Shown piece by piece: positions 45,093 through 62,460 of a DNA stretch of 64,000 bases (the first letter of the stretch is position 1; each line of letters begins with the position of its first letter). The stretch is taken from positions 32,001 through 96,000 of the forward strand of contig DAHWNL010000078.1 in NCBI GenBank assembly GCA_027339965.1, read 5' to 3'. The stretch is from Granulicella sp. (GTDB lineage Bacteria > Acidobacteriota > Terriglobia > Terriglobales > Acidobacteriaceae). The notes beneath the pieces were generated by a model. It saw only the letters and a list, made by a program, of their open reading frames with translations, was not told where the DNA came from and did not search any database. Position numbers and translations under genes: made by a program.

Positions 45093-47111
45093 ATGACGAT
45101 CCCTGCGATGCAGCAAAGAAGATGGAAAGGCGCCCTGGCAGGATTCTTCTGGCTCCAGCTCGCATGGCTGCTTTTGTCGAGTTGCGGAGGCAACAAGTCG
45201 ATTCCGACGCCGTTCCAGCCCGCGCCTCAACCGGTCTTCGGGCAGAGCGGATCGGTGACGATTTCCCCGGAGTTTGTGGCTCTGGGGATAGGACAAACTC
45301 AGCAGTTCACCGCGACCGTTGCCGGCGGAGGAGGAGCCATCCAATGGTCTCTGACGTGCGCCAGCAACTCCAAAGTCGGATGTGGAACTCTCTCCTCAAA
45401 CGGACTTTACACGGCTCCGGCGATCCCGTTTCAATCCCAGAATGCGATGATTACGGCGCAGCTCGCAAGCTCGCCGCAGAACAATTATGCGCAGGCTCTG
45501 GCAGCGCTGGTGAACTCGGGCCTGGTCTCCCCTACTGCGAATCCTCAAGTGGCAAGCTATGCGCTGAATCTGCCTGATCCGGGATCGATGACAGTGAACT
45601 TCGGCAAAACCACAGCATATGGATTTCCTACTTCGGCCCAGACCATCTCCGCGGCAAACACAGTAACAGTGCTCGTCGCCGGCATGATCGGAAATACGCA
45701 ATACCACATGCAAGCCACAGCGGTCCTGACCGCGATTACGGCGAGTGGGCAGAGGTTGAGCGCGACTTTCACCGATAACGATCACCCGTTCACCACCGGC
45801 ACGCCGTTCGCAACCTCACCGGTAACCGCAGGTGCAGTAGGCGGAGCCACGCCGCAGCCGGGAATTGAACTCTTCGATACAGCGCAACCGCAAGCGCCCG
45901 CGATGGCGTTTGCCACCGACCTGAAAGGAAATGTGATCTGGACCTATAGTTACAAGCTGACGGGAACGGGTGGAACCGGCTCGGTAGCAGACCTGATACA
46001 GCCGATCTATCTGCTGCCGAACGGGAATTTCCTGGTGCAGATCTCGTATCTGTCGTCGCTCCCGGTACACAAAGCGCAGGTGCTGCCATCTGGCACGCTG
46101 GACGAGGTGCGCGAGGTGAATCTTGCCGGCACCACCGTTCAGGAATTCACAGCTTCGAGTGTGCGCGCCGCCGTTGCCGCGAACCCGGCGCTCTCCGGCC
46201 AGCTCAGTGGTGTGACGCTGGGCAGCCTTCATCACGATGTGCTGGCGGTACCCAAGACTGGGCACATGGTGCTGCTGTTTTCGGCCACCAAGACGGTGAA
46301 CATAAGCCCGGCGATCAAGGGAATCGGCGGAGTTACTTACAGCGGTCCCACACCTGTGCTGGGAGATGTACTCGTCGATCTGGATCAAAACGGCAGCCCG
46401 GATTGGGTGTGGAACGCGTTCGAGAATCTTGACGTGAACCGGGTTCCATGGCCACAGCAGTTTCCAGACTGGACGCACTCCAACGCCTTGCTCTACTCCC
46501 GCAGCGACCACAATCTTCTGCTCTCCATTCGTCACCAGAACTGGATCGTCAAAATCGATTACGAGAATGGCACTGGCAGTGGAAACGTCATGTGGCGATT
46601 GGGCGAGGGTGGAGACTTTACACTGCAAGGGGGCACGGACCCGACGGATTGGTTTTACGCCCAGCACGGACCCAATTTCTTCACCACCAACACAATCGGC
46701 AACTTCACGCTGGGCGTGATGGATAACGGAGATGACCGGGAGTTCCCCGGGGAGTTGGCGAATGGAGGTGCGAATTGTCCATCTGCGGGCGTCAGTACAG
46801 CGGCTACCAGCCAGTGCTACTCGACAATGCTGGTCCTGGATGTGAACGAAACCAGCAAGACAGCAACAATCACCGAACGTTACCAGCCAACGCCCGCCGT
46901 ATACAGCTTCTTCGGCGGCGATGTATCTGTGCTTCAGAACGGCGATCGACACGTGGATTTCTGCTCTCCAACAGGTGGAACGCAGGTCTATGAGCGAGGC
47001 GGTCCCGTTGGATCAGGACAGGTGGTGTGGCAGGCAGTGACGAAGGGAGTGAATCAGAATCAGTATCGAACCGACCGACTCCCAAGCCTCTATCCGGGGG
47101 TAACCTGGTGA
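45093..47111 (+). CDS. Aryl-sulfate sulfotransferase (ASST)-family lipoprotein with N-terminal Ig-like domains
   Basis: LSSC lipobox, LHHD, DWTHSNAL, SIRHQNW, YAQH, MDNG. Confidence 0.82.
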   Translation: MTIPAMQQRRWKGALAGFFWLQLAWLLLSSCGGNKSIPTPFQPAPQPVFGQSGSVTISPEFVALGIGQTQQFTATVAGGGGAIQWSLTCASNSKVGCGTLSSNGLYTAPAIPFQSQNAMITAQLASSPQNNYAQALAALVNSGLVSPTANPQVASYALNLPDPGSMTVNFGKTTAYGFPTSAQTISAANTVTVLVAGMIGNTQYHMQATAVLTAITASGQRLSATFTDNDHPFTTGTPFATSPVTAGAVGGATPQPGIELFDTAQPQAPAMAFATDLKGNVIWTYSYKLTGTGGTGSVADLIQPIYLLPNGNFLVQISYLSSLPVHKAQVLPSGTLDEVREVNLAGTTVQEFTASSVRAAVAANPALSGQLSGVTLGSLHHDVLAVPKTGHMVLLFSATKTVNISPAIKGIGGVTYSGPTPVLGDVLVDLDQNGSPDWVWNAFENLDVNRVPWPQQFPDWTHSNALLYSRSDHNLLLSIRHQNWIVKIDYENGTGSGNVMWRLGEGGDFTLQGGTDPTDWFYAQHGPNFFTTNTIGNFTLGVMDNGDDREFPGELANGGANCPSAGVSTAATSQCYSTMLVLDVNETSKTATITERYQPTPAVYSFFGGDVSVLQNGDRHVDFCSPTGGTQVYERGGPVGSGQVVWQAVTKGVNQNQYRTDRLPSLYPGVTW

Positions 47112-47257: not shown

Positions 47258-47344
47258 GGCTTGATGGCGGAATCGGCATACGCGGTGGTCTCAAAAACCA
47301 TTGGGAGCAATCCCGTGTGGGTTCAAGTCCCACTCAAGCCACCA
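47258..47344 (+). tRNA. tRNA-Leu(CAA)
   Basis: Acceptor stem GGCTTGA/TCAAGCC, anticodon arm GTGGT-CTCAAAA-ACCAT, long variable arm GGGAGCAATCCC, GTTCAAGTC T-loop, encoded CCA. Confidence 0.95.
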
Positions 47345-47659: not shown

Positions 47660-48163
47660 TTGGAAATTCGTATCCCAACCGTACCCCCATCCGGGGCCTC
47701 GCCCGTCACGGGACGGACCGCAGCGCGTCTGCTTGGCGTGTTCTTCCTTTTTGCCTCTTCCCTTCTTGCAGCGCCGATTCCAGCCCGCGCACAAGATGCC
47801 GCGCTTCTGGCCAAAGCGAAGGCCGGCGATGAAGCATCTCAACTTCACCTCGGCGACTTCTATGCCGGTTTGAACACAGAGGACGGTTACACGCAGGCTG
47901 CTCTTTGGTACCGGAAAGCCGCCGATCAAGGTGATCCCAAGGCACAGTTTGCCCTAGGTAGCCTTTACTGCTGGCATCAGGGAGTCCCACTGGATTTCTC
48001 TACCGCCTACTTCTGGCTTGATCTGGCCGTTACTGCGGGTGTCCCTGACGACAATCACATGCGCAGCTACGCTTGGTCTCACCTGTCGGCAGATCAGGTA
48101 GCGGCAGCCCAGCAAAAGGTGAAAGCATGGCAGCATTCCCACAAGGAGAAGTCCGCCTCGTAG
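47660..48163 (+). CDS. Secreted Sel1-repeat protein
   Basis: Signal peptide, AKAGD..SQ.HLG, WYRKAADQGDPKAQFALG, AYFWL.LA. Confidence 0.8.
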   Translation: MEIRIPTVPPSGASPVTGRTAARLLGVFFLFASSLLAAPIPARAQDAALLAKAKAGDEASQLHLGDFYAGLNTEDGYTQAALWYRKAADQGDPKAQFALGSLYCWHQGVPLDFSTAYFWLDLAVTAGVPDDNHMRSYAWSHLSADQVAAAQQKVKAWQHSHKEKSAS

Positions 48164-48269
48164 AGGCTATGCGAGGAGGATCCAGGTCCAGCGGAGCTTT
48201 CCCCTGTTGAGCAACCGCCTTGGCCTACGGGCGTGCGGCCTCCGCAAGCGCTTTGGATACTTTGGATGA

Positions 48270-48435
48270 AGAAGACCGCTGTCACCAAGAGAGGCCCTCC
48301 GTCACCGCAGGAACGATCTTTGATCGCAGCCGTGTTCCGTTGGCGGACTGGTTTACGGCGATCTGTTCGATGACCAACCAGAAGTACGGCATCAGCACGC
48401 CCGCTTTGCAGCGGTTGCTGGGCTTGGGCAGCTAG
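48270..48435 (+). mobile_element. IS1595-family transposase fragment
   Basis: SVTAGTIFDRSRVPLADWFTAI..MTNQKYGIS..LQRLLGLGS then a stop; no DDE domain. Confidence 0.82.
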
Positions 48436-48657
48436 TAACCGCCCGGCAAAGCCGGAGGCTACTTGCCTTCATCCCCGAAAGTTTCAGGGTTCCTTGCGGC
48501 GAATGCTTGGGTAAACTGCTACAACACGCTCGTTGACCGTTGCTCCTGGGTATGTGCTCTGACGGGCTCCGCGGTGAGTCGTCGGGATGGATGACCCAGA
48601 ATGCCAAATGGCCACTGGCGCCCCCTCCTGGGCTTGCGTAACTCATGGAGATGGCGC

Positions 48658-50892
48658 CTACGACTCCATGATGACTGCCGCTGAACGCGGTGGAATTCGA
48701 AGCGAACCGCTGAAGGACTTGGCGTCTGGCTCCTCGGGTGTGGCAAAGACAAGCTTGCCCGCGTTGGGCAAGTCCAACGTAACGGTAACCGACTTTGTCT
48801 GTTCGAGACTGGCGACGACAACCGCGCGCTGGCCTCCTGAACGGCGAAAGACCGTGTAGCGGACCTTTCCGTCGGCAGGCACGTTGGCTCCAAGATTGTC
48901 GCGGAACTCGGCATCCCAGACCCATGCTTGATACCTTTTACGCAAAGCATCCACCTTTTTGCCGTACTCCAGCGTGAGCGGGAAATCTGTGATGTGTCCT
49001 TTGAAGTGATAAGGTTCGTACTCCATGATGTAGCGATAGAGCAGGCACAGGTTGATCTCATCCCGGGCGTTGAAGCCGCGGACAGCCGCCATGAGCGGGG
49101 CTTGCGGATCAATGTAGCGCAGAGCGTGAACCGTGCCCCAATTGATGCGGTAGTAGCCAAGCACATAGTATGGCATCAGCCAGTCGCCTGGTCCCTCCCC
49201 GGAGAAGAGAAAATCTTCGCCATTGGCGGCGCCGCCGGGCAGGAAGTAGTTGGAAGGGGTGTTGACTGCGGCCTGACGGAACTGCCTGGCGAGCGGGATA
49301 TCTGCATTGAAAAGATAGCCGGGCGGGTTATAGCCGTGATCGGCGCTGAAGTTATAGATCACGCCATTGTGTTGCATCACTTCGTCGAAAAGCCAGCCGG
49401 CAGCACCAAGCTTGACCGTCTTTTCAAACTCGTGCGTTGCAATGTCGCGGTACTCCTGGCAACAGACATCCATGATGGCCCTGCGGCGGTTGTTGATTCC
49501 AGCCAGTTGGACTGGCGTGGTGTAGCTGTAGCCACCCGCCTCGTACTTGTCGCCGTAAGGGTCCGTGCACTCGTACTTATAAAGAACTTCCTTGTACCAG
49601 GATCTGGAGATCGCGGCAAAGATGGGCTTGCCAAACAGGATGATCTTGACTCCCATGGCCTGAATCTTTGCAATCGCATCGTGAAGCTGCTCCCAGGTAC
49701 CGAGGCCAGGATCCGTGGAAAGATCGGGATCCCCTCCATCCTGGCCTCCGTAAGCCCAGCCGACGACTTGGATGGCGCGCACGCCGTTCTCTGCGCACTC
49801 CTTGCCGTAGTGCACAAGATCCGTATAGGGGACCAGGTAGTCCTGCTCCGCTCCATCCACGCGTAGTTGTTGCCAGGAGTGAACTTCTTTCACCCAGGCT
49901 GGAATAGGCGGCCTGCCGAACCATGTGGCGCGCCACTGCTTGTAAATGTCCAGGCCGGCGTGCCAGTCACCCGAATAGGGGCGCACCACGATGGGCGCGA
50001 GATGGAAGGAGGATTTAGGATGCGCAAAGACGAAGTGGCAGGGTCTGAATTCAAGATGCACCGGGATCCCGGAGATATCATCGGTGCGTGGAACGGCGTT
50101 GGCATTCGCATCCACCACGCCCGGAAGCTGGGAGAAGATAAATTGCAGGAAATAGCGGATCTCAGGGTCTTTCATGACCACGTACATGCCCTGCTGGGGT
50201 GACTGAATCAGGCAGAACTGGCTTTGAAATGCGCCCGTGTTGATGATCTTGGTGGGGTAACGATCGCCCCAATAGCCCAGGTTATTTGCAAAGCTGGGAT
50301 AAAGTTCCTGGGTCTGCAAAGCACCGACGAACATGGAATGCGCCAGCATCGCTGCGTTGGGCATGGGCGGAGTCAGATCCCCGAAGTAGGGATACTCGAC
50401 GGTATCAACGCTCAGATCCGACTGATTGTCAACCACACCATCAAACACAAGTTCCCCACTTTGCAGCGTCACGGTTGCTGTGAAGGTAATCGGTAGCACG
50501 CCTGCATGCTCACTGAGCAAATCTGTCCATTGGATCTGGACTCGGTTGTGAGCGATCTTCTCCACACGCTGGGCGCGTTGCTTGTGTCCGAGGACAAAGT
50601 TGTCGCTGCGTTCCGGCAGGGGAACCATCATGCGAAAAGAAGCACCGAGAGCAGGACGCCGCTCAATGGACCATTTGGTGGACTTGCGCTGCATCCGGGT
50701 GAGTGCGCCGGAGCGGGGATTGAATGCCAGGATCACCTCCGCGTCTTCGAGCACAACCTCGCCGCTGGCGGCAGCATCCTGCGCCACACTTGCGTTGTCA
50801 ACTTCGGCCAGAGCAGCCAGCGCGGTAAAGCCAGCCAGTTTATGAAACGCTCTACGATCCATTGCATTCTCCGTTTCGGGATGTCTATCCAT
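48658..50892 (-). CDS. Tat-exported glycoside-hydrolase-like protein (DUF6259-like TIM barrel)
   Basis: DRRAFHKL twin-arginine signal, beta-rich N-domain, GDW..G..IYKQW, QVVGW..GG.D, GAAGWLFDE, FSGE. Confidence 0.65.
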   Translation of the reverse strand: MDRHPETENAMDRRAFHKLAGFTALAALAEVDNASVAQDAAASGEVVLEDAEVILAFNPRSGALTRMQRKSTKWSIERRPALGASFRMMVPLPERSDNFVLGHKQRAQRVEKIAHNRVQIQWTDLLSEHAGVLPITFTATVTLQSGELVFDGVVDNQSDLSVDTVEYPYFGDLTPPMPNAAMLAHSMFVGALQTQELYPSFANNLGYWGDRYPTKIINTGAFQSQFCLIQSPQQGMYVVMKDPEIRYFLQFIFSQLPGVVDANANAVPRTDDISGIPVHLEFRPCHFVFAHPKSSFHLAPIVVRPYSGDWHAGLDIYKQWRATWFGRPPIPAWVKEVHSWQQLRVDGAEQDYLVPYTDLVHYGKECAENGVRAIQVVGWAYGGQDGGDPDLSTDPGLGTWEQLHDAIAKIQAMGVKIILFGKPIFAAISRSWYKEVLYKYECTDPYGDKYEAGGYSYTTPVQLAGINNRRRAIMDVCCQEYRDIATHEFEKTVKLGAAGWLFDEVMQHNGVIYNFSADHGYNPPGYLFNADIPLARQFRQAAVNTPSNYFLPGGAANGEDFLFSGEGPGDWLMPYYVLGYYRINWGTVHALRYIDPQAPLMAAVRGFNARDEINLCLLYRYIMEYEPYHFKGHITDFPLTLEYGKKVDALRKRYQAWVWDAEFRDNLGANVPADGKVRYTVFRRSGGQRAVVVASLEQTKSVTVTLDLPNAGKLVFATPEEPDAKSFSGSLRIPPRSAAVIMES

Positions 50893-51298
50893 GTCGGCGA
50901 CCCGCTGGGCGTTGCCTGCTCATTCAAGAGACCGGTTTTCTCAGGCTTGCTTGGCGTTCTGGTTGCACCACGTTGCACAGCTCGCAATCAAGCTTAGCCC
51001 AAGCAACCGCAACCTGATTTGAGCCCTGTTCAGGGGTCCGCAAACACCCTTCCAATGTCGAGGGAGCATGCCAGGCGCGGCGACGCAAAAAAGAGATGGC
51101 TGGTTGTGGATCGCGATGGAGAGAATCTCTGAAAATGGGCTCTCTGGAGAGAAACCTGTCGACACAGACCTCAAGAAGCATCTCTTGGAAGGCTTCCTGC
51201 GCTCCAGTGGACATCCAAACACGCACCCTCCAGCGTTCTTTGCTGAAAAGAGAAGCAGGCATAGGGCGCTGACCCGTGAGGTGGAGGAACAACTTGCA

Positions 51299-51320
51299 AT
51301 AATCGCTTCCAATCGATTAT
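51299..51320. promoter_or_regulatory. Putative operator ATAATCGCT-tc-CAATCGATTAT in the divergent glycosidase/MFS intergenic region
   Basis: Shares both words with 59821-59835 and the CAATCGAT core with 62551-62569; TTGCAA lies immediately upstream. Confidence 0.55.
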
Positions 51321-51518
51321 ACGTGGAGCAGGAATCTGTGATCGAGTGCAGGTCCAGCTACCGCCCGGGCACAAGTGCGAGCACGGCAAGAAGCCGAATC
51401 ACAACACGCCATGCCGCTTTTGACGTAACCTTCTCGAAACGACCAACCCGCCTGAACGGATGGCTTTTGCGACCGGAAGCATCCTGCGGGCAGATCAATC
51501 AGAACGGAAGCTCGCAAT

Positions 51519-52784
51519 TTGGCCACTAGAACCCCGGTTGAAGAACATACCGCGCCTCCTCCCCAGGCTCATGTCCAACGCTGGACGATTCTCTCGCTGC
51601 TCTTTGCGATCACGGTGATCAATATCATCGATCGTCAGACGGTGTCCGTATTGGCGCCCCTGATCAAGGCTGCCTTCCACCTCTCCGACGAAGCCTACGG
51701 GCGGATCGTCGCCGCTTTTCAATTCGGCATGATGAGCGGCGAACTGCCCATGGGACAATTGATGGACCAATGGGGATGCCGCATCGGCATGTGCGCCGCG
51801 GTTTGCTGGTGGTCGATGTGTACAGGCTCGCAGGCGTTCGTTCGCACTGGGATGCAGCTCGGCCTGTCACGGCTGGGAATGGGCGGAACCGAGTGCGGCA
51901 ATTTCTCCGGCGGGATGAAAGCCGTATCCGAGACCTTCCAAGAAAAGGAACGCACCTTCGCCATCGGCATCTTCAACAGTGGCAGTGTGGTTGGCGCCGT
52001 GATTGCCCCACCATTGATCGTCTTTCTGGTACAGCACTATGGGTTCCGCGCCGCATTTTTTGTTCCCGCATTGCTCGGGTTGATCTGGGTGGTGCTTTGG
52101 TGGTTCACCTACCCAAGCCATCGCGGCAAAGAGGTGCGGGAGAACGAGGCGCCAAAGACGCCCCTGAAGGCGCTGCTCGGCAACTCGTCTACATGGGCAG
52201 TGGTGCTCTGCCGAGCCTTCGTTGGCCCCGTGATTCAGTTTTACTGGTATTGGTTGCCCAGCTACCTTTACAGCGCGCGGCACATGACGATGACGCAGAT
52301 CGGCACCCTCTCCTGGATTCCCTTCTTCCTGGGCAGTGTCGGCGGCGTCGCCGGAGGGTGGGCAGCCGGTTGGCTGCAGCGGCGCGGAGCGACCCCACCC
52401 CTCGTTCGCAAACTCACCATGTACTTCAGCAGTATCCTTTGCCTGGCCAGTTTTCTCGTGCCGCTTGTGGCAGGGCCTATGCTGGCGCTCACTCTGATCA
52501 GCGTCGCCATCTTCGGACACAACTTTCTCTCGGTAAACATGTTTGGCGCAATTACGGATCTGTTTAGCGGCGCAGAAGTGGGACGGGCAACCGGAATGAG
52601 TGGCGTTGCAAGCGGACTGACCGGCCTGCTGTTTCCCCTACTCACCGGTTATCTCGTGGATCATGGCTCCTATCGGTCTGTCTTCATGATGGCGGCTCTG
52701 ATGCCGTTGATTGGAACCGTTGCGCTGTTTGTCCTGGCTCGGAAGTACCGGAGGATGACCGGAGATCAGAGAGTGCACGTCTGA
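51519..52784 (+). CDS. MFS transporter, ACS family (ExuT/hexuronate-like anionic-sugar importer)
   Basis: RW.IL.LLF..TVINIIDRQ, F..KER.FAIGIFNSG, WLPSYL; about 12 TM segments. Confidence 0.88.
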   Translation: MATRTPVEEHTAPPPQAHVQRWTILSLLFAITVINIIDRQTVSVLAPLIKAAFHLSDEAYGRIVAAFQFGMMSGELPMGQLMDQWGCRIGMCAAVCWWSMCTGSQAFVRTGMQLGLSRLGMGGTECGNFSGGMKAVSETFQEKERTFAIGIFNSGSVVGAVIAPPLIVFLVQHYGFRAAFFVPALLGLIWVVLWWFTYPSHRGKEVRENEAPKTPLKALLGNSSTWAVVLCRAFVGPVIQFYWYWLPSYLYSARHMTMTQIGTLSWIPFFLGSVGGVAGGWAAGWLQRRGATPPLVRKLTMYFSSILCLASFLVPLVAGPMLALTLISVAIFGHNFLSVNMFGAITDLFSGAEVGRATGMSGVASGLTGLLFPLLTGYLVDHGSYRSVFMMAALMPLIGTVALFVLARKYRRMTGDQRVHV

Positions 52785-52813
52785 GTTGGAAGACCTCCGG
52801 GGTGAGAGATGCT

Positions 52814-53857
52814 TCAACTGTGAGAGATGCTTTCAAGAACACGCGACGATCCGGCTGGCTTGACGCTGCACCTGTCTTGCCACGGAGTGGCGGCCTCAAG
52901 CACTTTGTTTACCTTGCTTATATTCTCCGCGCCCTCCGTTTCCAGCCATGCACGTAGCGCCGTAGGGCCTTGCTGCACAAAGATAGGAACGCCACCTTGC
53001 CAGGTGGCGCGGCCACACAGCACTCCGTGGAACTCAACGCCGCTTTCCAGCGCGAACTCCAACCCTTCAATGAAAGCGCTATTGGGCACGCCCGCCGAGA
53101 GATAAACGAACGGTTTGGTGGAGGCAGCCGCAGCTCGGCGGAAGTGTTCAGCCGCTTCGGCCCGCGAATAGGCTTGCTGACCCGTGTAGACCTGCATGCC
53201 AGGAACGGACTGCATGCGGACCGGGAACTCCAGCTTGAGCACGTCGGCCCCGTATCGATCCGCAGTGAACTCCTCGATGGAACGAATCACGATCTCCGGC
53301 TTGCGCCTTGCATAGCTTAGAGAGCTTTCTTCCTCGCCGACGCCATACGCGAGCAGCTCCAGAAACAGGGGCATATCCAGGGCACGGCACTCAGCGCCGA
53401 TTCGCTCGACCCAGGCCTTCTTCTGTTCATTCACCCAGCCATCCGCAAACGGCGAATAGAAGAGGAGGATCTTCACGGCGGCGGCACCTGCTTCGCGCAG
53501 ACGCAGCACCGACCATCCTTCTGTCAGACTAGGTAAAAAATCCGGGGCCGTAAAGTCATAGCCGGATTTCTCATAAGCCAGCATGGCTCCTTTCCCGTTG
53601 CGGTGCCCCAGTGCCGGCAAACCAAACTCTACATCCAGCAGGATGGCCGATGCGTGACGCGTAAGCGCCTCGGTGACAATCTCCTTGAACTCGGAGACCA
53701 TGGCATCGGTCGGTTCGCCGGCCTGCATTTCCTTAGCCATCATCTTTTTCAGCAATCCGCGCTGGTCGAGTGCAGCCGCCGCAATCACTCCTCGCGGATT
53801 GGCGACAGCCTTGAGGCCGGCAATCTTTCCCTGAGTCAAAACTGAGGTCATCACCAT
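52814..53857 (-). CDS. lacD: Class I tagatose-1,6-bisphosphate aldolase family protein (candidate sulfo-ketose-1-phosphate aldolase)
   Basis: ALDQRG, ILLD.EFG, LAYEKSGYD, VKILL, ERIG.EC, DVLKLE, YLSAGV, GVLCGRATW. Confidence 0.88.
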   Translation of the reverse strand: MVMTSVLTQGKIAGLKAVANPRGVIAAAALDQRGLLKKMMAKEMQAGEPTDAMVSEFKEIVTEALTRHASAILLDVEFGLPALGHRNGKGAMLAYEKSGYDFTAPDFLPSLTEGWSVLRLREAGAAAVKILLFYSPFADGWVNEQKKAWVERIGAECRALDMPLFLELLAYGVGEEESSLSYARRKPEIVIRSIEEFTADRYGADVLKLEFPVRMQSVPGMQVYTGQQAYSRAEAAEHFRRAAAASTKPFVYLSAGVPNSAFIEGLEFALESGVEFHGVLCGRATWQGGVPIFVQQGPTALRAWLETEGAENISKVNKVLEAATPWQDRCSVKPAGSSRVLESISHS

Positions 53858-53917: not shown

Positions 53918-54895
53918 CTATCGCACGGGCAGGCGCTGGGGCGTCGCCTGATGGACCGAGCTCAGCGCCGGTCTACCCTCCAGCACTCGAGTGATGTCCT
54001 CGCAGATCGCAACCGTCACCCGACCTTGGGCCTCGTGTGTCCAGGCTCCAACATGTGGCATCAGAATCACATTTGGCATCGACTCCAGCTCTCCCTGCTG
54101 GGGCGGCTCAGTGGCCCGAACATCCAGCGCCGCGCCGGCTAATCTCCCGGATTTGAGTGCAGCCAGCAGATCCGGCTCCGATACGACCTTCCCGCGCGAT
54201 GTATTGATGAAGTAGGAGCCGGGCTTCATCCTTTCAAAGCAGGCGAAATTCACGAGCCCTGATGTCTGCGGCGAAGCGGGCAGATGGCAGGAGACAATAT
54301 CCGCCCGAGCAAACAACTCCTCCATCGCCACCAATTCGGCCTGAAGATCGGCCAGCAGAACATTGTCCGGGCTGAGGAATGGGTCGCAGGCCAGCACACT
54401 CATGCCGAAAGCCCGGGCGCGGCGAGCCGTGAGATAACCAATTTTCCCGGCGCCAACAATACCCAGCGTCTTGCCATAGAGCTCTGACCCGATAAAGCGG
54501 CGGCGATTCCAGTTTCCGGCCTTGGTGTCCCGGTCGGCAACGGGGATAAAGCGCACCAGGGAGAGCATCAGGCCGAGGGCCAGTTCGGCGACGCTGATTG
54601 CGTTCTGATCCGGCGTGAAGGCCACCACAATGCCGGCTTGACGGGCATACTCCACATCCACATTGTCCAGCCCCACTCCGGCACGCCCGATCACGAGTAG
54701 CTGGGGGGCTGCATCGATCAACTCGGCCGTCACCGGCGTCTGGTTGCGCACAAGGAGTGCATGGCAACCCCTGATCTTGTCAATCAGAAGCTGCGGCGAC
54801 TTCCATGCGTCCGGCAGATAGAGCACGTCAAATCGGCTGCGGAGTGCGTCTACAGCAGATCCTTCAATAGCCTCTGATATCAGAATGTCGGGCAT
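53918..54895 (-). CDS. D-2-hydroxyacid dehydrogenase, SlcC-like (S)-sulfolactate dehydrogenase candidate
   Basis: DILISE, ALLVRNQT, GRAGVGLDN, GAGKIG, INTSRG, PHVG; no ACT domain; adjacent to comC-like and suyAB genes. Confidence 0.8.
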   Translation of the reverse strand: MPDILISEAIEGSAVDALRSRFDVLYLPDAWKSPQLLIDKIRGCHALLVRNQTPVTAELIDAAPQLLVIGRAGVGLDNVDVEYARQAGIVVAFTPDQNAISVAELALGLMLSLVRFIPVADRDTKAGNWNRRRFIGSELYGKTLGIVGAGKIGYLTARRARAFGMSVLACDPFLSPDNVLLADLQAELVAMEELFARADIVSCHLPASPQTSGLVNFACFERMKPGSYFINTSRGKVVSEPDLLAALKSGRLAGAALDVRATEPPQQGELESMPNVILMPHVGAWTHEAQGRVTVAICEDITRVLEGRPALSSVHQATPQRLPVR

Positions 54896-55950
54896 GCGTT
54901 CACCTCGGGACAGTCGAATGCAACCTTCAGTTGCCGGCACCAGTGTTCCAATTCCGCAATCGTCTCCGGCGCAAGGGGAATGCCGTGCGACTGGTTTTGC
55001 TCAGCGATGCGCGCGGAGCGCTCTCCAGGAAGCAGAATTTCGCTCACTCCGTTGCGTCTCCTCGACGACTTGATCTGGCCAATGGTTTCGTCCATCCGCT
55101 GTAGATACTCCTCGTAGTCCAGGAAGGCGGAGATGTCGAACAGACAGAAAAAATGACCGACATTCTGTGGGCGATCCAGGTTCTTGTACATAGAGCCCAC
55201 CTGGGAACCAATCGCAGCTCCGGAGAGAACTCCGCTGAACATCTCCACCATCAAGGCCAGCGCATAGCCCTTGTGGCCGGCCATGGTAAGAACCGTGCCC
55301 AGCAAGGCTGCCTGGGCATCGGTGGTGGGCTCTCCCTGCGGGTCGAGCGCCCAGCCCTCTGGAATCGGTTGATTGCGCCTCTGAGCGGCAATGATGTTGC
55401 CGCGAGCCACGATCGAGGTAGCCAGATCAATCTTCACCGGAAAGCTCCGGCGCGTGGGGAAAGAGGCGGCGATGGGATTGGTGCCGAAGAAAGGCTCGTA
55501 GCCGCCTGCGGGCGACATGGCTGGCTCGCAGTTGGTCATCGCCAGCAGCACCATGCCATGCTCCGCCGCTGCATTGCAGTACCAGGAGAGCGCGCCGAAG
55601 TGCTGCGAGTTGCGGATGGTAGCCGCGGCTACCCCGTTCCGCCGCGCCAAAGGGATCAGGCGATCCAGCGCCTTCCGCGCCTGCACCTGCCCAAGTCCAT
55701 TACCTGCATTCAGCGCCAGCACACTTTCGGCTCCGCGATCTGCGGTGAGCGGCGCTGCGGGGTCAATCAATCCCTCCTGTATGCGACGCAAATAGATGCT
55801 GAGGCGCGAGACTCCATGCGTCGAAACGCCATGCAGATCGGCATCGACCAGCGCACTCGCAAACAAAGCTGCGTCCTGCGCCGGCACGCCGATGGCAACG
55901 GCAAGCTGCGCGACAAGGCGCTCCAGCGTTTCCTTTCGATATCGCTCCAT
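54880..55950 (-). CDS. Ldh_2-family oxidoreductase, ComC-like (R)-sulfolactate dehydrogenase candidate
   Basis: ADLHGVSTHG, NSQHFGA, GTNPIA, DLATS, GHKGYAL, LLPGE. Confidence 0.82.
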   Translation of the reverse strand: MERYRKETLERLVAQLAVAIGVPAQDAALFASALVDADLHGVSTHGVSRLSIYLRRIQEGLIDPAAPLTADRGAESVLALNAGNGLGQVQARKALDRLIPLARRNGVAAATIRNSQHFGALSWYCNAAAEHGMVLLAMTNCEPAMSPAGGYEPFFGTNPIAASFPTRRSFPVKIDLATSIVARGNIIAAQRRNQPIPEGWALDPQGEPTTDAQAALLGTVLTMAGHKGYALALMVEMFSGVLSGAAIGSQVGSMYKNLDRPQNVGHFFCLFDISAFLDYEEYLQRMDETIGQIKSSRRRNGVSEILLPGERSARIAEQNQSHGIPLAPETIAELEHWCRQLKVAFDCPEVNACPTF

Positions 55951-56020: not shown

Positions 56021-57184
56021 TCAGGCGCTGCGATAGAGCTTGGTCATCACAAACTCGCGATGGCCGAGCGCCTCCGCCGCCGTGAGCCTGCCGTTGGCCG
56101 TACGAACAATCATCTCGATGAGAGCGTCTCCGGCCTGGTCGAGCGTCATCTCTCCCTGCAAAATCGGAGCCACGTCCAGGTCGATGTGCTCCTTCATTGT
56201 GGCGACGGTCTTGGGATTCCCGGACAGCTTGATGACCGGTTCAATGGGATTGCCGATGACGTTGCCCTGACCGGTCGGGAAAAGGTGGACGACCGCGCCC
56301 GAAGCAGCCCACAGCGTCACCGCCTCCGCCGCAGCGCTGGAGGTGTCCATGAACCACATGCCGGCCTTGGTCGGGGCTTCTGCCGGCTTAAGACACCCAA
56401 TAAACTTGGTCTTCTTGCCCAGCTTTTCCACGTTACCCAGCGCCTTCTCTTCAATGGTCGAGAGTCCGCCGGCGATATTCCCCTTGGTCGGCTGCGACTC
56501 AGAAAGATCATCGGTCTTCTCACTGAACACCAGACGCGTGTAATCTTCGAAAGCCGCCATGAACTGCTTGCGCACCTCTTCATTGGCCGCTTTGGCGGCT
56601 ACGATGTGCTCTGCGCCGGTCAACTCGCTCGTTTCACCGAAAGAGGCCGTCCCGCCGAGCGCGCAGTGTTTGTCCAGAACATTGCCGACAGTGGGGCAAC
56701 TGGCCAGGCCGGTGGTGGTGTCGGACTCCCCGCACTTCACGCTGATATACAGTTCGCTCAGCCTGCACTCCGCGCGCTGCAGCTCGGAAGCCCACTGAAC
56801 AAACTCCTTTGCTTTGTAGGACGCATCGGCGATGGTGCGTATATCGCCCTGGCCTTCGATCCAGTATCCCTCCACCGGCTTGCCGGTCTTCGCAATGCCG
56901 TCCACGATGCGCTTGGTCCAACCCGCCTCAATGCCGATGACCACCACGGCTGCAACGTTCGGATTGCTGCCGATACCGATCATGGTGCGAAAGAATAACT
57001 CAAGATCTTCGCCAAACTGCAGCCGGCCGTAGGCGTGCGGCAGGGCGAGCGTTCCCTTGATATTGTTGGCAACTGCCTCGCAGGCGGCGTTGGAGATATC
57101 GTCCACCGGCAGGATGACGACATGGTTGCGGATTCCTACCCGCCCGTTTTCCCGTCGAAATGCGTGAATCTTTCGGTCTGTCAT
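56021..57184 (-). CDS. suyB: (2R)-sulfolactate sulfo-lyase beta subunit (UxaA family)
   Basis: [52 protein letters not shown] and [10 protein letters not shown] match SuyB as I recall it, rather than UxaA/GarD (CGGSD). Confidence 0.88.
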
Positions 57185-57496: not shown

Positions 57497-58939
57497 TTAA
57501 AAGACGCCAATCGAAACGTGTTTCGTTTCGAGAAACGCGTCCAGACCCTCGCTGCCCAGCTCACGGCCCCATCCGCTCTGCTTCACCCCACCGAAGGGGC
57601 TCTGGCTGGTGGTGGGCGCGCCGTCGTTGATGCCTAGCGTGCCTGCCTCGATCTGCTCAGCGAGCCGGAAGATGCGCGCCACATCTCTCGTCATGGCATA
57701 GGCGCTCAAGCCATACTCCGAGTGGTTAGCCAACGCAATGGCCTCCTCTTCGCTATCAAAAGCGGCAATCGGCGCGACCGGTGCGAACGTCTCCTCGCGC
57801 ATGCACATGGCGCCCGGGGGAGCGTTATCGATGACCGTCGGCTCCAAAAAGAACCCGGCCGCGCCGGCTGCTCGTTTCCCGCCACAGAGGAGCTCGCCAC
57901 CCAGGCTGACGGCGTTCTCAATCTGGCTGAGCGCGCCCTCCAACGCCTGCTGGTTGATCACCGGGCCGACATCCGCGCCGGACTCCAGTCCTGAACAGAC
58001 CTTCAGCTTCTTCACTCCATCCACAAAACGCTGGATAAACTTGTCGTGAATGGAACGTTGGACGTAGATGCGGTTCGCGGCAATGCAGGATTGACCGGTG
58101 TTGCGGAACTTGGCGATGAGCGTCTCGTGCACCGCTATGTCCAGGTCGCAGTCTTCGAAGACCAGGACAGGAGCCAGTCCGCCCAGTTCCAGAGAGAGCG
58201 GCTTGACCGTCTGCGCTGCGCCGGCAATCAGTTCCCTTCCAACCTCGGTGGAACCGGTGAAGGTGATCTTGCGGCAGATGGGGTTGGCCAGGAATTCCGC
58301 GGAGATCGCCTTTGCATTGCCCAGCACCAACTGGAAGACACCATGCGGAACGTCGGCGCTCTCCACGCACTCCGCAAAGGCGATCGCGCAAAGCGGAGTT
58401 TGCATCGAGGGCTTCAGGACCACCGGGCAGCCCACCGCCAGCGCGGGCGCCACCTTGCGCACGGCCAACACCAACGGAAAGTTCCACGGAGAGATGGCGC
58501 CAACGACGCCGATGGGAGTCCGCACCACCATGTTGCGGCGGCCATCCGTCTGATGAGGAATGATGCGTCCGTAGACGCGCTTTCCCTCTTCTGCGAACCA
58601 GCGCAGATGCTCCTCGGCCATGGCTACCTCTCCGCGGCTCTGCGCAAGCGGCTTGCCATTCTCCAGCGTGATCGTGCGGGCAATCTCTTCTCGCCGCCGA
58701 GCCAGTTCGTCTGCAACCCGGTTAAGGTAAGCCCCTCTTGCCTTCGCATTCAGAGCTCGCCATGAAGCCAGAACCCGATGCGCATCCTCCAAGGCCGCAG
58801 CCACCTGATCCTGCGTTATCCGCGATACCCGAGCAAACGCCTCGCCTGTCGCAGGATTGATCACGTCAGCGACATCTGCGGTGACTATCCAACGCCCATT
58901 CACATACGACCCGCGCACGTCGCCCGGCTTCTGCTCCAT
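57497..58939 (-). CDS. NAD(P)-dependent aldehyde dehydrogenase, GabD-like (candidate sulfolactaldehyde dehydrogenase)
   Basis: PWNFP, FTGSTEVG, LELGG, KFRNTGQSCIAANR, EETFAP, PFGGVKQSG. Confidence 0.9.
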   Translation of the reverse strand: MEQKPGDVRGSYVNGRWIVTADVADVINPATGEAFARVSRITQDQVAAALEDAHRVLASWRALNAKARGAYLNRVADELARRREEIARTITLENGKPLAQSRGEVAMAEEHLRWFAEEGKRVYGRIIPHQTDGRRNMVVRTPIGVVGAISPWNFPLVLAVRKVAPALAVGCPVVLKPSMQTPLCAIAFAECVESADVPHGVFQLVLGNAKAISAEFLANPICRKITFTGSTEVGRELIAGAAQTVKPLSLELGGLAPVLVFEDCDLDIAVHETLIAKFRNTGQSCIAANRIYVQRSIHDKFIQRFVDGVKKLKVCSGLESGADVGPVINQQALEGALSQIENAVSLGGELLCGGKRAAGAAGFFLEPTVIDNAPPGAMCMREETFAPVAPIAAFDSEEEAIALANHSEYGLSAYAMTRDVARIFRLAEQIEAGTLGINDGAPTTSQSPFGGVKQSGWGRELGSEGLDAFLETKHVSIGVF

Positions 58940-58955
58940 CTTGGCCCTCTCTTCT

Positions 58956-59609
58956 TCAGTCCACCCACTTGGGAACAAACTTTCCCTGACGCGCCTGCGA
59001 ATCGATCATCTTGGCCGCTTCCGCCACATGATGCCGGGCCAGCCGCTCCGCGCTATCGGGCTGATTTTTCTCAATTGCAGTGATAATCGCCAGGTGCTCA
59101 TCGTGGATCGTTCGCGGCTCGCGCGAAGCGCGCACCATCATGCCCAAAACTCGGTAGGTCTCCGCCAGACGCGTCAAGATCTTGTTTCGCGATAACTCCG
59201 TGATATGTAGATGAAAATCGCGATCAAGCCGGCCCATCGCTTCTTCCTTGCCCTTCTTGGCCAGCTGATAGATCTCATCGGCCATCTCTCGCAGGGTAGC
59301 GATGTCGGCAGGAGCCACGTTGCCACAACCCAGCCGGGCAGCCAATCCCTCCAGCGCTTCGCGAACCTGATAGGCCTGGCAGATGCGATTGGCATCCAGG
59401 CTCCCTACAAATACCCCCAACTGATCCACCGATTCGACCAGACCGAGCCTCTGCAGTTCAAACAGGGATTCGCGAACCGTACCCTGTGCGACCCCCAGCT
59501 CCCGAGCCAGACTCTGCTGGCTGAGACGCTCCCCGGGCTTCGATTCCCCGGACAGAATCCGGCGCTGGATCTCTTGACGAACGTGATGACGCGCTACACG
59601 TGCAGGCAT
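58956..59609 (-). CDS. GntR-family (FCD) transcriptional regulator
   Basis: PGERLSQQSLARELGVAQGTVRESL HTH; FCD domain DRDFH...EH. Confidence 0.92.
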   Translation of the reverse strand: MPARVARHHVRQEIQRRILSGESKPGERLSQQSLARELGVAQGTVRESLFELQRLGLVESVDQLGVFVGSLDANRICQAYQVREALEGLAARLGCGNVAPADIATLREMADEIYQLAKKGKEEAMGRLDRDFHLHITELSRNKILTRLAETYRVLGMMVRASREPRTIHDEHLAIITAIEKNQPDSAERLARHHVAEAAKMIDSQARQGKFVPKWVD

Positions 59610-59864: not shown

Positions 59865-61235
59865 TCACTCCCACCATGAAATTCTCAACAATCTGGCTAG
59901 CCGGCGTAAAGTTTCGCGATGGGTTCCAAAGGAGACCAGCACATGATGCGGCAAACCCACATGAAGCAAACGATCAAACCACGAGGGGACATCGACTTCC
60001 CGGATATGGACCAGGGCGGTATTGCCGGTAAGCTTACGGCGTGGCTCCACCGTACGGCCTGCCAACGCTGTCAAATGGTAGCGGTTCTCGCAGCGCCACA
60101 ACCGAAACATCGTTACAGGCTCGTTTGTTCGGATGCGGCCATCTACCACCAGCGGCTTGACGATATTGAAGTGGGGCGCCAGCGCGGGAGCCTCTTCGCA
60201 CCCCGGCCCGTCGCACATATCCATGGGAGCCATACCCGGGTGCCAAAAGAAGATCGACTCCCGGTCGTGCTCCAGCCAGTCGGTAAGAAATCCGGGACCC
60301 GCTCCAATCAAAAGGCTGATCAAACTGCTGAGAGCCCCATCCACATCGCCTTCGATCGCTACGGCGCGCCCCTCTGTGCTGAGCCGCGAAACGGCCAGAT
60401 ACGGCCACTGCCCAAGCAGATTCGGCAGCTCAGGCCAGCATTGGAGGGCCAAAGCGTCAAGCCTCTCCTCTTCCATTAAATCTCGCATGGCCAGGTAGTA
60501 GCGCGAGTTCATCGCCAGATCCTCTGCCACCACGCCGCGCAGAGGCAGCTTCATCTCCTGCACCTTCTGGACATCGCGAAGAACTGCTTGCTCAGGTAGC
60601 TCTCGGACGCGCTCAATAAACTGCGGCAGGCTGAGCGGACAAAGCTGGGAGCCAATCGCTTGACGCAGGAGAAACGGCTCTACCGCCAGATCAATGAAAC
60701 CCGGAACGTGCGTCCCCACCAGACCGACACGGCTGCGGCGGAGGCGGAAGGCGGCGCGCGCCAGCATGACCGCCCTTGCCAGATCCTCACGTACAGCGCC
60801 GTCATCGGGATCACCGTAAACGAACTCCAAGGGATGTCCTACCTGCCGCAGAGAAGACGCCCAGAGATGCTGCCCAACCAAAGAACAGGAGCTCACCTTC
60901 CCATCGCCAGGCCGCTCCGGCGTCGCCCAAAGAATCACCGGATCAGGCCACCGCTGGGACAGCGTAAGAGCCAGTTGTCCATGGGCAATCGAGGGCTGCA
61001 GCAGCAGAAGCACCTCACATCCGGCCCGCTGAACCTCCTCCAAAGCGGCAACGGTCGTCATCTCGTCCACGACCGGCTTCTCAATCCGCGTCAAGGAATA
61101 GCCCAGATGCTCCAAGATGTCCAGGCAGCGTGCCGTCATCATCTGATTCCACTCCTGGTCAAACCCAGGGCGCTTGCGGCCCACAGAGATGACCCCCAGA
61201 CGGATGAACTTTCGATCTTCAAGATTGGATGACAT
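59865..61235 (-). CDS. L-fucose/L-arabinose isomerase-fold sugar isomerase
   Basis: SCSLVG, VGLVG..PGF, LDALALQCWPEL, EGDVDGA, D..........WH.G, GLPHH. Confidence 0.8.
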   Translation of the reverse strand: MSSNLEDRKFIRLGVISVGRKRPGFDQEWNQMMTARCLDILEHLGYSLTRIEKPVVDEMTTVAALEEVQRAGCEVLLLLQPSIAHGQLALTLSQRWPDPVILWATPERPGDGKVSSCSLVGQHLWASSLRQVGHPLEFVYGDPDDGAVREDLARAVMLARAAFRLRRSRVGLVGTHVPGFIDLAVEPFLLRQAIGSQLCPLSLPQFIERVRELPEQAVLRDVQKVQEMKLPLRGVVAEDLAMNSRYYLAMRDLMEEERLDALALQCWPELPNLLGQWPYLAVSRLSTEGRAVAIEGDVDGALSSLISLLIGAGPGFLTDWLEHDRESIFFWHPGMAPMDMCDGPGCEEAPALAPHFNIVKPLVVDGRIRTNEPVTMFRLWRCENRYHLTALAGRTVEPRRKLTGNTALVHIREVDVPSWFDRLLHVGLPHHVLVSFGTHRETLRRLARLLRISWWE

Positions 61236-62460
61236 GTTTCCTCTCTTCTTCGGAATCGGTCTTCCGAGAGCTTGGCGGATAATCCGGCAATGTGATCTCA
61301 GGATGGGAGTCCAACTGTCCGATTAACGGCCGGATGTACTCGAAATATGGCTCCCCAAGTGGAACGTCGCCATCTCGAATCCACTCCTCAGGGATTGGAC
61401 GCTCGATGCCCGCAACCTCGATCAGCGGAACGAGATCGTATCTTCCGGTCTCGGTGCTCTGCAGCGGCCGCAGCGATACCATCCGCTCGGAGACTCCGGC
61501 AAGCACAGCCTGCACTCCCGCTCGGCCTACCAGCTCCGCATCCGCACGATCCTGGCTCGCAACATGTTGCATCGACGATCGCCCCAGCAGGCCGGGCTTT
61601 TCGCTTCGGCAGCGCAACTTGAGATGCTGGGCCACCCGATCGGCCAGGTACTGCGCAACTCCCCCCGTAATGGATCGCTTCAGTGCGTCAGCCTGAGCCG
61701 GATCCTCTACCTCATAGACCATGCGCCCCCGCGCGTCGCGAAGACCTTCCGCAGCTACGACCACACACCACCCGCTCCGCGTCACGCAGCCGTCCACCCG
61801 CGCCAAAAATTGATCCAGCACCAAAGGCCTTTCCGGCAGAAGAACGATATGCGGGGCTTCGTCCTCATCTTGCTTGGTTGCTGCAGCCGCAGCCGCCAGC
61901 CATCCTACGCTGCGTCCCATCGTCTCAAGGATTGAGACGGGCTGCGGCATGGAGCGAACGTCCGCCGCAAGGTCGCAGGTCGCCTGGGCGATGTACCGGG
62001 CGGCGCTTGCATAACCCGGGGAGCGGTTCGTCCTCTCCAGATCATTGTCCACCGTCTTCGGCACGCCAACAATCCGAATCACTCGGCCTGCCTTCCGGGC
62101 GCAATCGGCGAGCAGACCTGCGGCATGCATGGTTCCATTCCCTCCAATTACCAGAACGTCACTCACCCGCAGGCGTTCCAGGTGCCGTACGATCGCTGTA
62201 AGATCCTCTGCCTTCAACGGATAGCGAGATGCACCCAAGGTTGCTCCGGGCGAGCCTCGCAGGACGCGAAGATCTTGTAGGGAAAGACCGGTCAAGTCAG
62301 CCACTTGCCCCTGAGCTAGTCCTCTCATAGCCGAGCGGGCACCCAGGATTCGCCGGAAGGCCCCTGATCCGCGCGCTTCTTCCACAATGGATGCCAGTGT
62401 GGCATTCAGTACCGGCGTGGGTCCACCGGCCTGCACCACCAAGATGTTGCGCTCCGCCAT
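61219..62460 (-). CDS. PfkA-superfamily kinase (candidate sulfo-ketose 1-kinase)
   Basis: QAGGPTPVLN, LGASR, IGGNGT, PKTVDNDL, ETMGR..GWLA, AEG. Confidence 0.88.
   Translation of the reverse strand: MAERNILVVQAGGPTPVLNATLASIVEEARGSGAFRRILGARSAMRGLAQGQVADLTGLSLQDLRVLRGSPGATLGASRYPLKAEDLTAIVRHLERLRVSDVLVIGGNGTMHAAGLLADCARKAGRVIRIVGVPKTVDNDLERTNRSPGYASAARYIAQATCDLAADVRSMPQPVSILETMGRSVGWLAAAAAATKQDEDEAPHIVLLPERPLVLDQFLARVDGCVTRSGWCVVVAAEGLRDARGRMVYEVEDPAQADALKRSITGGVAQYLADRVAQHLKLRCRSEKPGLLGRSSMQHVASQDRADAELVGRAGVQAVLAGVSERMVSLRPLQSTETGRYDLVPLIEVAGIERPIPEEWIRDGDVPLGEPYFEYIRPLIGQLDSHPEITLPDYPPSSRKTDSEEERKHVIQS

Follow-up and report, generated by a model that had tools for sequence, protein, structure and literature searches.

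A DUF6259-like predicted glycoside hydrolase likely tied to sulfosugar breakdown in Acidobacteria

To our knowledge, the sulfoquinovosidases described so far fall into only two glycoside hydrolase (GH) families, GH31 (YihQ, AtSQase and SqgH) and GH188 (SqgA). In the part of the GH188 report available to us, SqgA was found through gene clusters that lack a GH31 enzyme (PMC10755693). The same discovery logic applies to a locus of Granulicella sp. (GenBank assembly GCA_027339965.1, contig DAHWNL010000078.1, positions 32,001 to 96,000; the whole 64,000-nucleotide stretch is called the window below), where a gene for a putatively exported glycosidase lies beside a predicted sulfosugar cluster (Table 1). 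The original prediction, made from the sequence alone, held that this protein stands in for a sulfoquinovosidase and might found a new sulfoglycosidase family. The gene is real and widespread, it co-occurs with a likely sulfosugar pathway far beyond chance, and it is likely tied to sulfosugar breakdown in Acidobacteria and some bacteria of the PVC (Planctomycetota, Verrucomicrobiota, Chlamydiota) group. From its modeled structure, the product is predicted to be an uncharacterised glycoside hydrolase whose fold is kin to GH129, GH36 and GH101 but which is a member of none of them.

Co-occurrence was assessed in 400 family genomes, a 400-genome sample of the phylum, the 74 distinct genomes behind 78 homologue loci, and 44 regions around the isomerase used as cluster marker. 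Within the family, the isomerase was present in 9 genomes and the glycosidase in 12, with both in 8; the one isomerase genome without the glycosidase is 81% complete. Because related genomes are not independent, the hypergeometric P of 3e-13 for this overlap is too strong. The isomerase was found in 1 of 400 genomes of the phylum sample and in 52 of the 74 genomes with a close homologue. Cluster-adjacent copies of the glycosidase fell on four separate branches of the enzyme tree, built with FastTree after 6 of 88 rows had been set aside as very distant, fragmentary or frameshifted; G653, G779, G807 and L158 supply additional cases. The link is tight at the whole-genome level but looser nearby, with SuyB within 10 kb of only 4 of the 78 homologues. 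The glycosidase was present in 9 of the 44 cluster regions, 4 of which had been fetched through the glycosidase itself. The original prediction had named homologues never linked to sulfonate genes as one finding that would speak against it; on this point what was found is the reverse. As a control, a GH42 variant from the same loci occurred in 44 of 150 family genomes (a tally that includes the unpublished genome G421, which enters no other result) without such restriction. It was rejected as a specific partner for this reason, and its commonness suggests that the sulfo co-occurrence is not general to glycan genes.

These data also bear on the possibility that the glycosidase has no functional tie to sulfosugars and that both gene sets are merely common to one ecological guild and shuffled in glycan-utilisation islands. 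The glycosidase is transcribed away from the cluster, with a tRNA-Leu and an insertion-sequence-like scrap just beyond it, and in a relative at 89-91% identity other glycosidases and a TonB receptor come after it; the non-independence of kin noted above points the same way. Conversely, the sulfo link crosses Acidobacteriota, Verrucomicrobiota and Planctomycetota, and the GH42 control shows no comparable restriction. We regard the lack of any functional tie as quite unlikely.

The adjacent genes were described beforehand as a sulfosugar setting, and this held up: with an SftI-like isomerase, a kinase, an aldolase, and SuyAB-like and ComC-like genes, the cluster reads as a sulfosugar-to-sulfite pathway, and judging by gene content here and in relatives a pathway of this kind, for a gluco or galacto sugar, is likely. 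At the level of protein families it resembles sulfo-EMP2 (the second sulfoglycolytic Embden-Meyerhof-Parnas pathway; SqvD, SqiK, SqiA, SlaB) combined with ComC/SuyAB mineralisation, with an SqvD-like isomerase, a PF00365 kinase, an aldehyde dehydrogenase, and ComC-like and SuyAB-like genes. It differs in its aldolase, which is class I and LacD-like (PF01791) instead of class II (SqiA, PF01116), in having no YihQ, and in an isomerase far below the SftI cut-off (Table 1). The SuyB-like protein is 69% identical to the product of a Paracoccus plasmid gene flanked by a SAF-size gene and a putative sulfate exporter. Across the 44 isomerase regions, SuyB was present in 36, ComC in 37 and a YeiH-like exporter in 8. 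Verrucomicrobial and planctomycete versions carry class II aldolases and transaldolase/fructose-6-phosphate aldolase (FSA) genes, and the relatives L104, L106, L109 and L110 carry a class II aldolase. The available part of PMC9594981 places SqiK in PF00365, SqiA among the class II aldolases of PF01116 and SqvA in the transaldolase/FSA family.

Two further gene sets were observed around such clusters. In L105-L110 (Verrucomicrobiota, Planctomycetota), an SftI-like isomerase, a class II aldolase and a transaldolase/FSA stand with SlaB-, ComC- and SuyAB-like genes, joined in some cases by a YeiH exporter; by gene content these would be hybrids of sulfo-EMP2 and the sulfoglycolytic transaldolase (sulfo-TAL) pathway with full desulfonation. 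A solute-binding protein and a TsdA/SoxA-type cytochrome c (L209:1068-2030; L234:2250-3068) occur together near 5 of the 44 clusters and possibly handle sulfite or thiosulfate.

At the sequence level, PF19773 (DUF6259) was the sole Pfam family matching the glycosidase at E<=0.01, with 24.5 bits against a gathering cut-off of 28.7 (E 1.7e-5). A precomputed PF19773 match was present in 113 of 120 homologues, among the matches listed, and the top ESM Atlas clusters for the protein are DUF6259, with GH36 clusters as the nearest named neighbors. NCBIfam gave no match, while the PDB returned nothing to a single-sequence search and only weak GH13 and GH129 fragments to a profile search. Homologues at E<=0.001 numbered 956 among 7995 scored candidates, and clustering at 50% yielded 1049 homologue representatives. 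The term 'DUF6259' appeared in no paper in the full text of 8.1 million PMC papers and 0.36 million preprints, a scope outside which subscription journals lie.

An AlphaFold2 model built on an alignment of 105 sequences (mean per-residue confidence, pLDDT, 94.5; predicted template modeling score, pTM, 0.91) comprises a beta-sandwich, an eight-stranded barrel and a C-terminal beta domain. By VIA-align, the top fold matches were GH129 NagBb (5WZP; Z 26.7, root-mean-square deviation 3.9, 537 residues aligned), a GH36 galactosaminidase (Z 26.5) and ZgGH129 (Z 25.7), and identities were 9-13% for the GH129, GH36 and GH101 rows of Foldseek and VIA-align. Foldseek ranked GH101 at 9-35 and the GH31 sulfoquinovosidase 6PNR at 50, with a TM-score of 0.50. 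The model thus bears out the TIM-barrel-like hydrolase proposed from the sequence, as well as its acidic candidates in the WLFDE (residues 500-504) and FSGE (563-566) motifs, whose D503 and E566 are conserved at strand ends. A pattern scan of the 744-aa protein for GxGxxG/GxGxxA, WMAD, WxDMxE and DMNE was likewise negative, as had been said of the GH31 nucleophile and Rossmann motifs, and membership of GH31 and of GH188 is excluded.

Each of the nearest described families shares features with the window protein and differs from it. GH129 (NagBb, 5WZN/5WZP; the 3,6-anhydro-D-galactosidase ZgGH129/DagB, 5OPQ) has the same beta-sandwich, barrel and C-terminal beta domain (Z 25-27) and the same Asp-then-Glu candidate pair, but identity is 11-13%, no PF11308 match was found at E<=1, and the hhalign probability against a GH129 member is 21%, for the N-terminus only. 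GH36 (Flavonifractor galactosaminidase 9AYU; AgaA alpha-galactosidases) follows the same three-domain plan (Z 24-26.5), but the window protein has no Melibiase (PF02065) match, its strand 2 (VVGW) is without an acidic pair, and its strand 6 (LGYYR) is without an Asp acid/base, the positions at which we take GH36 to carry these residues. The GH101 endo-alpha-N-acetylgalactosaminidases have the same plan, and the window protein is far shorter. The GH31 sulfoquinovosidases have a related barrel and likewise stand beside sulfoglycolytic clusters; the window protein in contrast gave no PF01055 match and no GH31 chain in PDB sequence searches, has a putative twin-arginine translocation (Tat)-type signal, and carries an Asp/Glu pair (D503 and E566 on strands 4 and 5; strand 6 ends YYR) in place of the GH31 Asp/Asp dyad. 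According to the available part of PMC12780224, GH31 sulfoquinovosidases bind the sulfonate through a Q/E-R-W-Y motif, and no matching pattern was found in the barrel at the sequence level. Unlike GH188 SqgA, the window protein is without a Rossmann or Gfo/Idh/MocA domain.

Position 425 of the barrel aligns with the His of the GH13 strand-3 motif, a residue that contacts O6 in amylases. The position is occupied by Phe or Trp here and lies next to Lys422, which fits a sugar without a free 6-OH, whether a pentose, a 6-deoxy or a 6-sulfo sugar, and does not tell these apart. A retaining alpha mechanism (double displacement) would be expected from the analogy to ZgGH129 and the chemistry of GH129, GH101 and GH13. 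The order of the Asp and Glu matches that of ZgGH129, and it is by this order that D503/E566 would correspond to its D486/E517, which the available part of the DagB report gives as essential (PMC5698469).

On balance, we favor, at slightly less than even weight, a periplasmic retaining exo-alpha-glycosidase that removes a neutral rare aldose of the pentose type from a complex glycan likely bearing a C-sulfonated sugar. The enzyme would be exported to the periplasm via its twin-arginine signal and would act on oligomers imported through TonB, with Asp503 as nucleophile and Glu566 as acid/base of a double displacement. The neutral sugar released would, in many relatives, pass via a mutarotase, a cupin isomerase and a C3-epimerase towards L-xylulose or L-ribulose, and the sulfosugar thereby exposed would be converted by the adjacent cluster to dihydroxyacetone phosphate (DHAP), pyruvate and sulfite. 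Arg211, on a lid loop of the N-terminal domain, may contact the sulfonate on the adjoining sugar. Neighbors in the 78 genome loci include TonB receptors (26), GH42 (24), a GH92-containing group (15), SSF transporters (12) and GH38 (9); the TonB receptors, galactosidases, mannosidases and rhamnosidases point to a complex glycan rather than sulfoquinovosyl diacylglycerol (SQDG) or sulfoquinovosyl glycerol (SQ-glycerol), both of which are unlikely substrates. Even with a neutral substrate the enzyme would be the first of a new glycoside hydrolase family, and, taken with the genes inherited alongside it, would imply a natural glycan that contains a C-sulfonated sugar.

The pentose assignment comes from distant homologues, for which the best 80 of 415 confirmed metagenome loci (33-54% identity) were analyzed. 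Partners in these loci were a phosphomannose isomerase (PMI)-type cupin in 15, ATP-binding cassette (ABC) sugar permeases in 11, a psicose-epimerase-like gene in 9, FucU in 8 and the sulfo cluster in 1. The cupin accompanied a free-ketose epimerase in 9 loci and an L-ribulose-5-phosphate 3-epimerase in 3 (2 of them with an FGGY kinase), never both in one locus; L162 adds AraD, and in L177 a true FucI precedes the glycosidase gene, with a kinase and GH172 also present. The cupin weakly matches 1ZX5 (its single-sequence model, at pLDDT 32, was unusable), and the partner epimerase scored about equally against IolO 5-keto-L-gluconate epimerase and psicose epimerase. W340, Q342, D385, K422, Y457, D503, E566, R582 and E626 of the window protein were identical in 17 of 17 cupin-, epimerase- or FucU-linked rows. 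The released sugar would accordingly be a pentose of the L-xylo/D-arabino series, with L-arabinose also possible. The cupin module accompanies the sulfo cluster in 38 of the 52 genomes and 5 of the 9 family genomes, and lies inside 8 of the 44 regions; because the module tracks the sulfo cluster in this way, it seems that the glycosidase, the pentose module and the sulfo pathway belong together in a single glycan system whose genes are dispersed.

Two observations on the module stand apart. In L083:8024-12397, L138, L162 and L191:17741-19886, it combines the PMI-type cupin (~410 aa, no Pfam family) with either epimerase type, a FucU/RhaM-type mutarotase and a transporter, plus a kinase in the L-ribulose-5-phosphate 3-epimerase form, and looks like an undescribed catabolic route for L-xylose or L-lyxose. 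Other distant homologues stand beside FucI, GH172 and DUF4185 (GH183-like) genes (L177:6596-14750, L134:12123-13433, L156), neighbors that suggest D-arabinose glycans for some branches.

Several points weigh against a neutral-sugar enzyme. The window genome (98.9% complete) has no homologue of the cupin, epimerase or FucU, so the proposed neutral product would be without that route there. The sulfo isomerase occurs in the absence of a close cupin in 14 of the 74 genomes, the reverse in only 3. Only 33 of the 80 distant loci reach at least 10 kb, and sulfo genes were sought at these loci rather than genome-wide. In L054 and L055 the glycosidase directly follows the last dehydrogenase of the cluster on the same strand. 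At likely pocket positions the window protein departs from the broad family (R386G, W425F, D427A, Q/H/N344R, D211R), so a shift in specificity is possible. No glycan with the proposed sugar pair was identified, and literature searches on glycosidases for L-xylose, on sulfonated polysaccharides of soil and on sulfoquinovose in Acidobacteria gave nothing relevant among the results listed.

The main competing explanation, that of a true sulfoglycosidase of a new family freeing the sulfosugar in the periplasm for import by the adjacent major facilitator superfamily (MFS) transporter, is a tentative one that we take seriously. Besides the co-occurrence (8/9 and 52/74) and the adjacent copies on four tree branches, it is favored by the apparent lack of another enzyme for the task. 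No YihQ-type GH31 was found in the 44 cluster regions, the single GH31 there being 38% identical to a xylosidase-like gene of the window genome. The two GH31 genes of that genome were rejected as the missing YihQ (PRK10426 scores of 170 and 90 against 553; best PDB matches labelled alpha-xylosidase), in a comparison that did not extend to the SqgH type. Its six Gfo/Idh/MocA genes include none in the cluster and none named SqgA by NCBIfam; one of them, compared with the PDB, matched 8QC2 at E 2e-10. The window genome is also without orthologues of the 3-keto redox system, DUF5054 protein, 950-aa protein, cupin, epimerase and FucU that recur elsewhere, leaving the DUF6259-like gene as its only linked candidate. 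Arg/Lys211 and Arg344 are moreover enriched in isomerase-positive rows. Conversely, homologues beside pentulose genes have the same catalytic core, with sulfo genes near 1 of 80 distant loci; 35 of the 44 cluster regions have no copy within the fetched stretch; a glycoside 3-dehydrogenase-type gene, DUF5054 and the GH42 variant lie in 10, 11 and 8 of the 44; and 22 of the 74 close carriers, many of them Bryobacterales, as well as 4 further family genomes, have neither an isomerase nor a SuyB orthologue. The Arg signatures are furthermore post hoc and follow clades. Of the role first proposed, the association with the pathway is supported by co-occurrence beyond chance, while cleavage of the sulfosugar itself is no more than a candidate activity, as 22 carriers are without the pathway, the wider family keeps its pentose partners and the neighbors point to a complex glycan.

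Several of these alternative enzymes were observed at cluster regions. A gene of the glycoside 3-dehydrogenase type, accompanied by IolE-like and 3-keto-disaccharide hydrolase genes (L091:15755-16936; L112:14836-16329; L207-L222) flanks 10 of the 44 clusters at >=60%, and is a candidate redox-elimination route freeing sulfosugars. DUF5054 (~720 aa, Tat-like signal; L084:3644-5809), in 11 of the 44 regions and 7 of the 9 cluster-bearing family genomes, is a second uncharacterised candidate glycosidase. Other flanking candidates were the GH42 variant (8/44) and GH27 (6/44), and an unnamed exported protein of ~900-950 aa with only a weak tectonin match (L057:2905-5757; L097:505-3234) recurs beside the glycosidase and the sulfo cluster.

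A sulfoglycosidase could act on either sugar series. A retaining alpha-sulfofucosidase, unlikely when taken by itself, would suit the nearest folds, which act on alpha-galacto sugars, and the LacD-like aldolase; the available part of PMC12421959 states that no sulfofucosidase had been identified as of 2025. An alpha-sulfoquinovosidase, which we regard as unlikelier still, would suit the class II aldolases and transaldolase/FSA of relatives, the families of SqiA and SqvA. As to possible substrates, archaeal N-glycans contain C-sulfonated sugars, namely sulfofucose with a heptose in Thermoplasma and beta-linked sulfoquinovose in Sulfolobus (PMC11407970, PMC12448462); the anomeric linkage of the Thermoplasma sulfofucose was not found in the available parts of these sources. 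The DUF6259-like protein is a concrete sulfoglycosidase candidate that is cheap to assay, and such activity would give the sulfur cycle a further point of entry in the Acidobacteria that abound in soil and peat.

Position 211, on the conserved GYWG loop, is the clearest sequence signature of sulfo-linked members. Of the 35 rows with Arg211, 34 came from isomerase-positive genomes; Arg or Lys stood at this position in 35 of 57 positive versus 1 of 21 negative rows (p 3.5e-6). In 78 distant rows the residue was Asp in 57, Asn in 14, Glu in 4 and never Arg or Lys, and in the Bryobacterales clade it was Leu. As the best of 127 columns, and one that follows clades, the signature is treated as a lead. 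In the available part of PMC5698469, N-terminal residues 198-218 line the ZgGH129 site, which makes a substrate contact of Arg211 at the -1 or +1 site plausible. Arg344 was rejected as a signature (20 of 61 positive versus 1 of 23 negative rows), since it ranked 7th of the 127 columns and failed correction. The Arg211-bearing acidobacterial subfamily may, tentatively, be the first sulfofucosidase or a third structural class of sulfoquinovosidase, that is, a periplasmic retaining Asp/Glu enzyme acting on C-sulfonated sugars of microbial cell-surface glycans and feeding an EMP-type route through the LacD-like aldolase to sulfite; this would point to an unrecognised pool of sulfonated glycans in peat and soil.

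Basic residues are also conserved at strand ends and loops elsewhere in the protein (K422, R470, R582, R610 and K631, with R386 in distant members). These residues, together with a partner epimerase that is IolO-like about as much as psicose-epimerase-like, could speak for an alpha-glycosidase whose target is some other anionic sugar (uronic acid, ulosonic acid or sulfated sugar) of the same glycan or of one that overlaps it. We consider this quite unlikely, as no recurring uronate catabolic genes were found among the neighbors, and basic residues at such positions bind neutral hydroxyls in GH27 and GH36 too.

Table 1 Features of the glycosidase gene and the adjacent cluster in the window
Feature	Coordinates	Strand	Basis or remark
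DUF6259-like predicted glycoside hydrolase	48658..50892	-	744 aa as called; probable start 50862 (734 aa)
Twin-arginine signal, residues 11-37, D-R-R-A-F-H-K ending in SVA	50782..50862	-	Sequence reading; low-pLDDT helix in model
N-terminal beta-sandwich domain, ~residues 45-307, conserved GYWG loop 206-209	49972..50760	-	Model, structure comparison and alignment
Arg211, on GYWG loop of N-terminal domain, candidate anion contact	50260..50262	-	Post hoc
(beta/alpha)8 barrel, ~residues 330-660	48913..49905	-	Model and Foldseek/VIA-align
Lys422, end of strand 3	49627..49629	-	78/78 of broad set, so not specific to sulfo-linked members
Asp503, predicted nucleophile, end of strand 4	49384..49386	-	Kept in 102/105 alignment rows and 78/78 distant rows
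Glu566, predicted acid/base, end of strand 5	49195..49197	-	Kept in 100/105 alignment rows and 78/78 distant rows
C-terminal beta domain, residues 661-744	48661..48912	-	Model and profile search
MFS transporter, best match D-galactonate (anion) transporter model, below cut-off	51519..52784	+	Pfam/NCBIfam
Class I aldolase (PF01791), near LacD tagatose-bisphosphate aldolase (E ~1e-88), far from YihT (E ~1e-7)	52814..53857	-	
D-2-hydroxyacid dehydrogenase, likely one half of sulfolactate racemase	53918..54940	-	Putative role
ComC-like dehydrogenase, best model L-sulfolactate dehydrogenase, 266 bits vs cut-off 500	54880..55950	-	
SuyB-like sulfolactate lyase beta subunit	56021..57184	-	Pfam and Paracoccus comparison
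SuyA-like SAF protein, 92 aa	57188..57466	-	Pfam
Aldehyde dehydrogenase, likely sulfolactaldehyde dehydrogenase	57497..58978	-	Putative role
GntR regulator	58956..59609	-	Pfam
SftI/SqvD-like isomerase, 145 bits vs cut-off 700	59865..61235	-	Used as cluster marker
PfkA-family kinase (PF00365, SqiK family)	61219..62460	-	

The open reading frame, its RRAF (residues 13-16), WLFDE and FSGE motifs and its divergence from the MFS gene were found as the original prediction described, with one correction at the start. Homologues open with 'MDRR', a GGAG lies just 5' of Met11 and the ESM Atlas record begins at residue 11, all of which indicate that Met11 is probably the true start. The putative signal was read from the sequence as DRRAFHK followed by a moderately hydrophobic stretch and SVA; PF10518, the Tat signal family, gave no match in the protein, and the signal type varies among homologues, some having a Sec-type signal and others none. 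A gap of 626 bp separates the gene from the start of the MFS gene, on which the rest of the cluster converges from the right. No sigma-70 promoter matched in 48100-53000, where terminator-like sites were at chance level. The glycosidase is single-copy in its source genome, and no plasmid-borne homologue was found.

Around the gene, the tRNA-Leu(CAA) (47258-47344) and the short transposase-like scrap (~48290-48440), which we take to be IS1595-like, lie just downstream and possibly mark an island edge. An exported arylsulfotransferase-family protein (45093-47111), 1.5 kb from the glycosidase, was seen in 0 of 78 homologue loci and is thus probably unrelated to it. In an 89% identical relative, a gene for an FAD-dependent oxidoreductase is inserted between glycosidase and MFS gene (L003:1864-3396). 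Just past the window (G000:C70:96611-104860), a TonB receptor and GH3-like and GH78-like genes (66% to glycosidase neighbors in relatives) show that the locus continues on the far side of the cluster.

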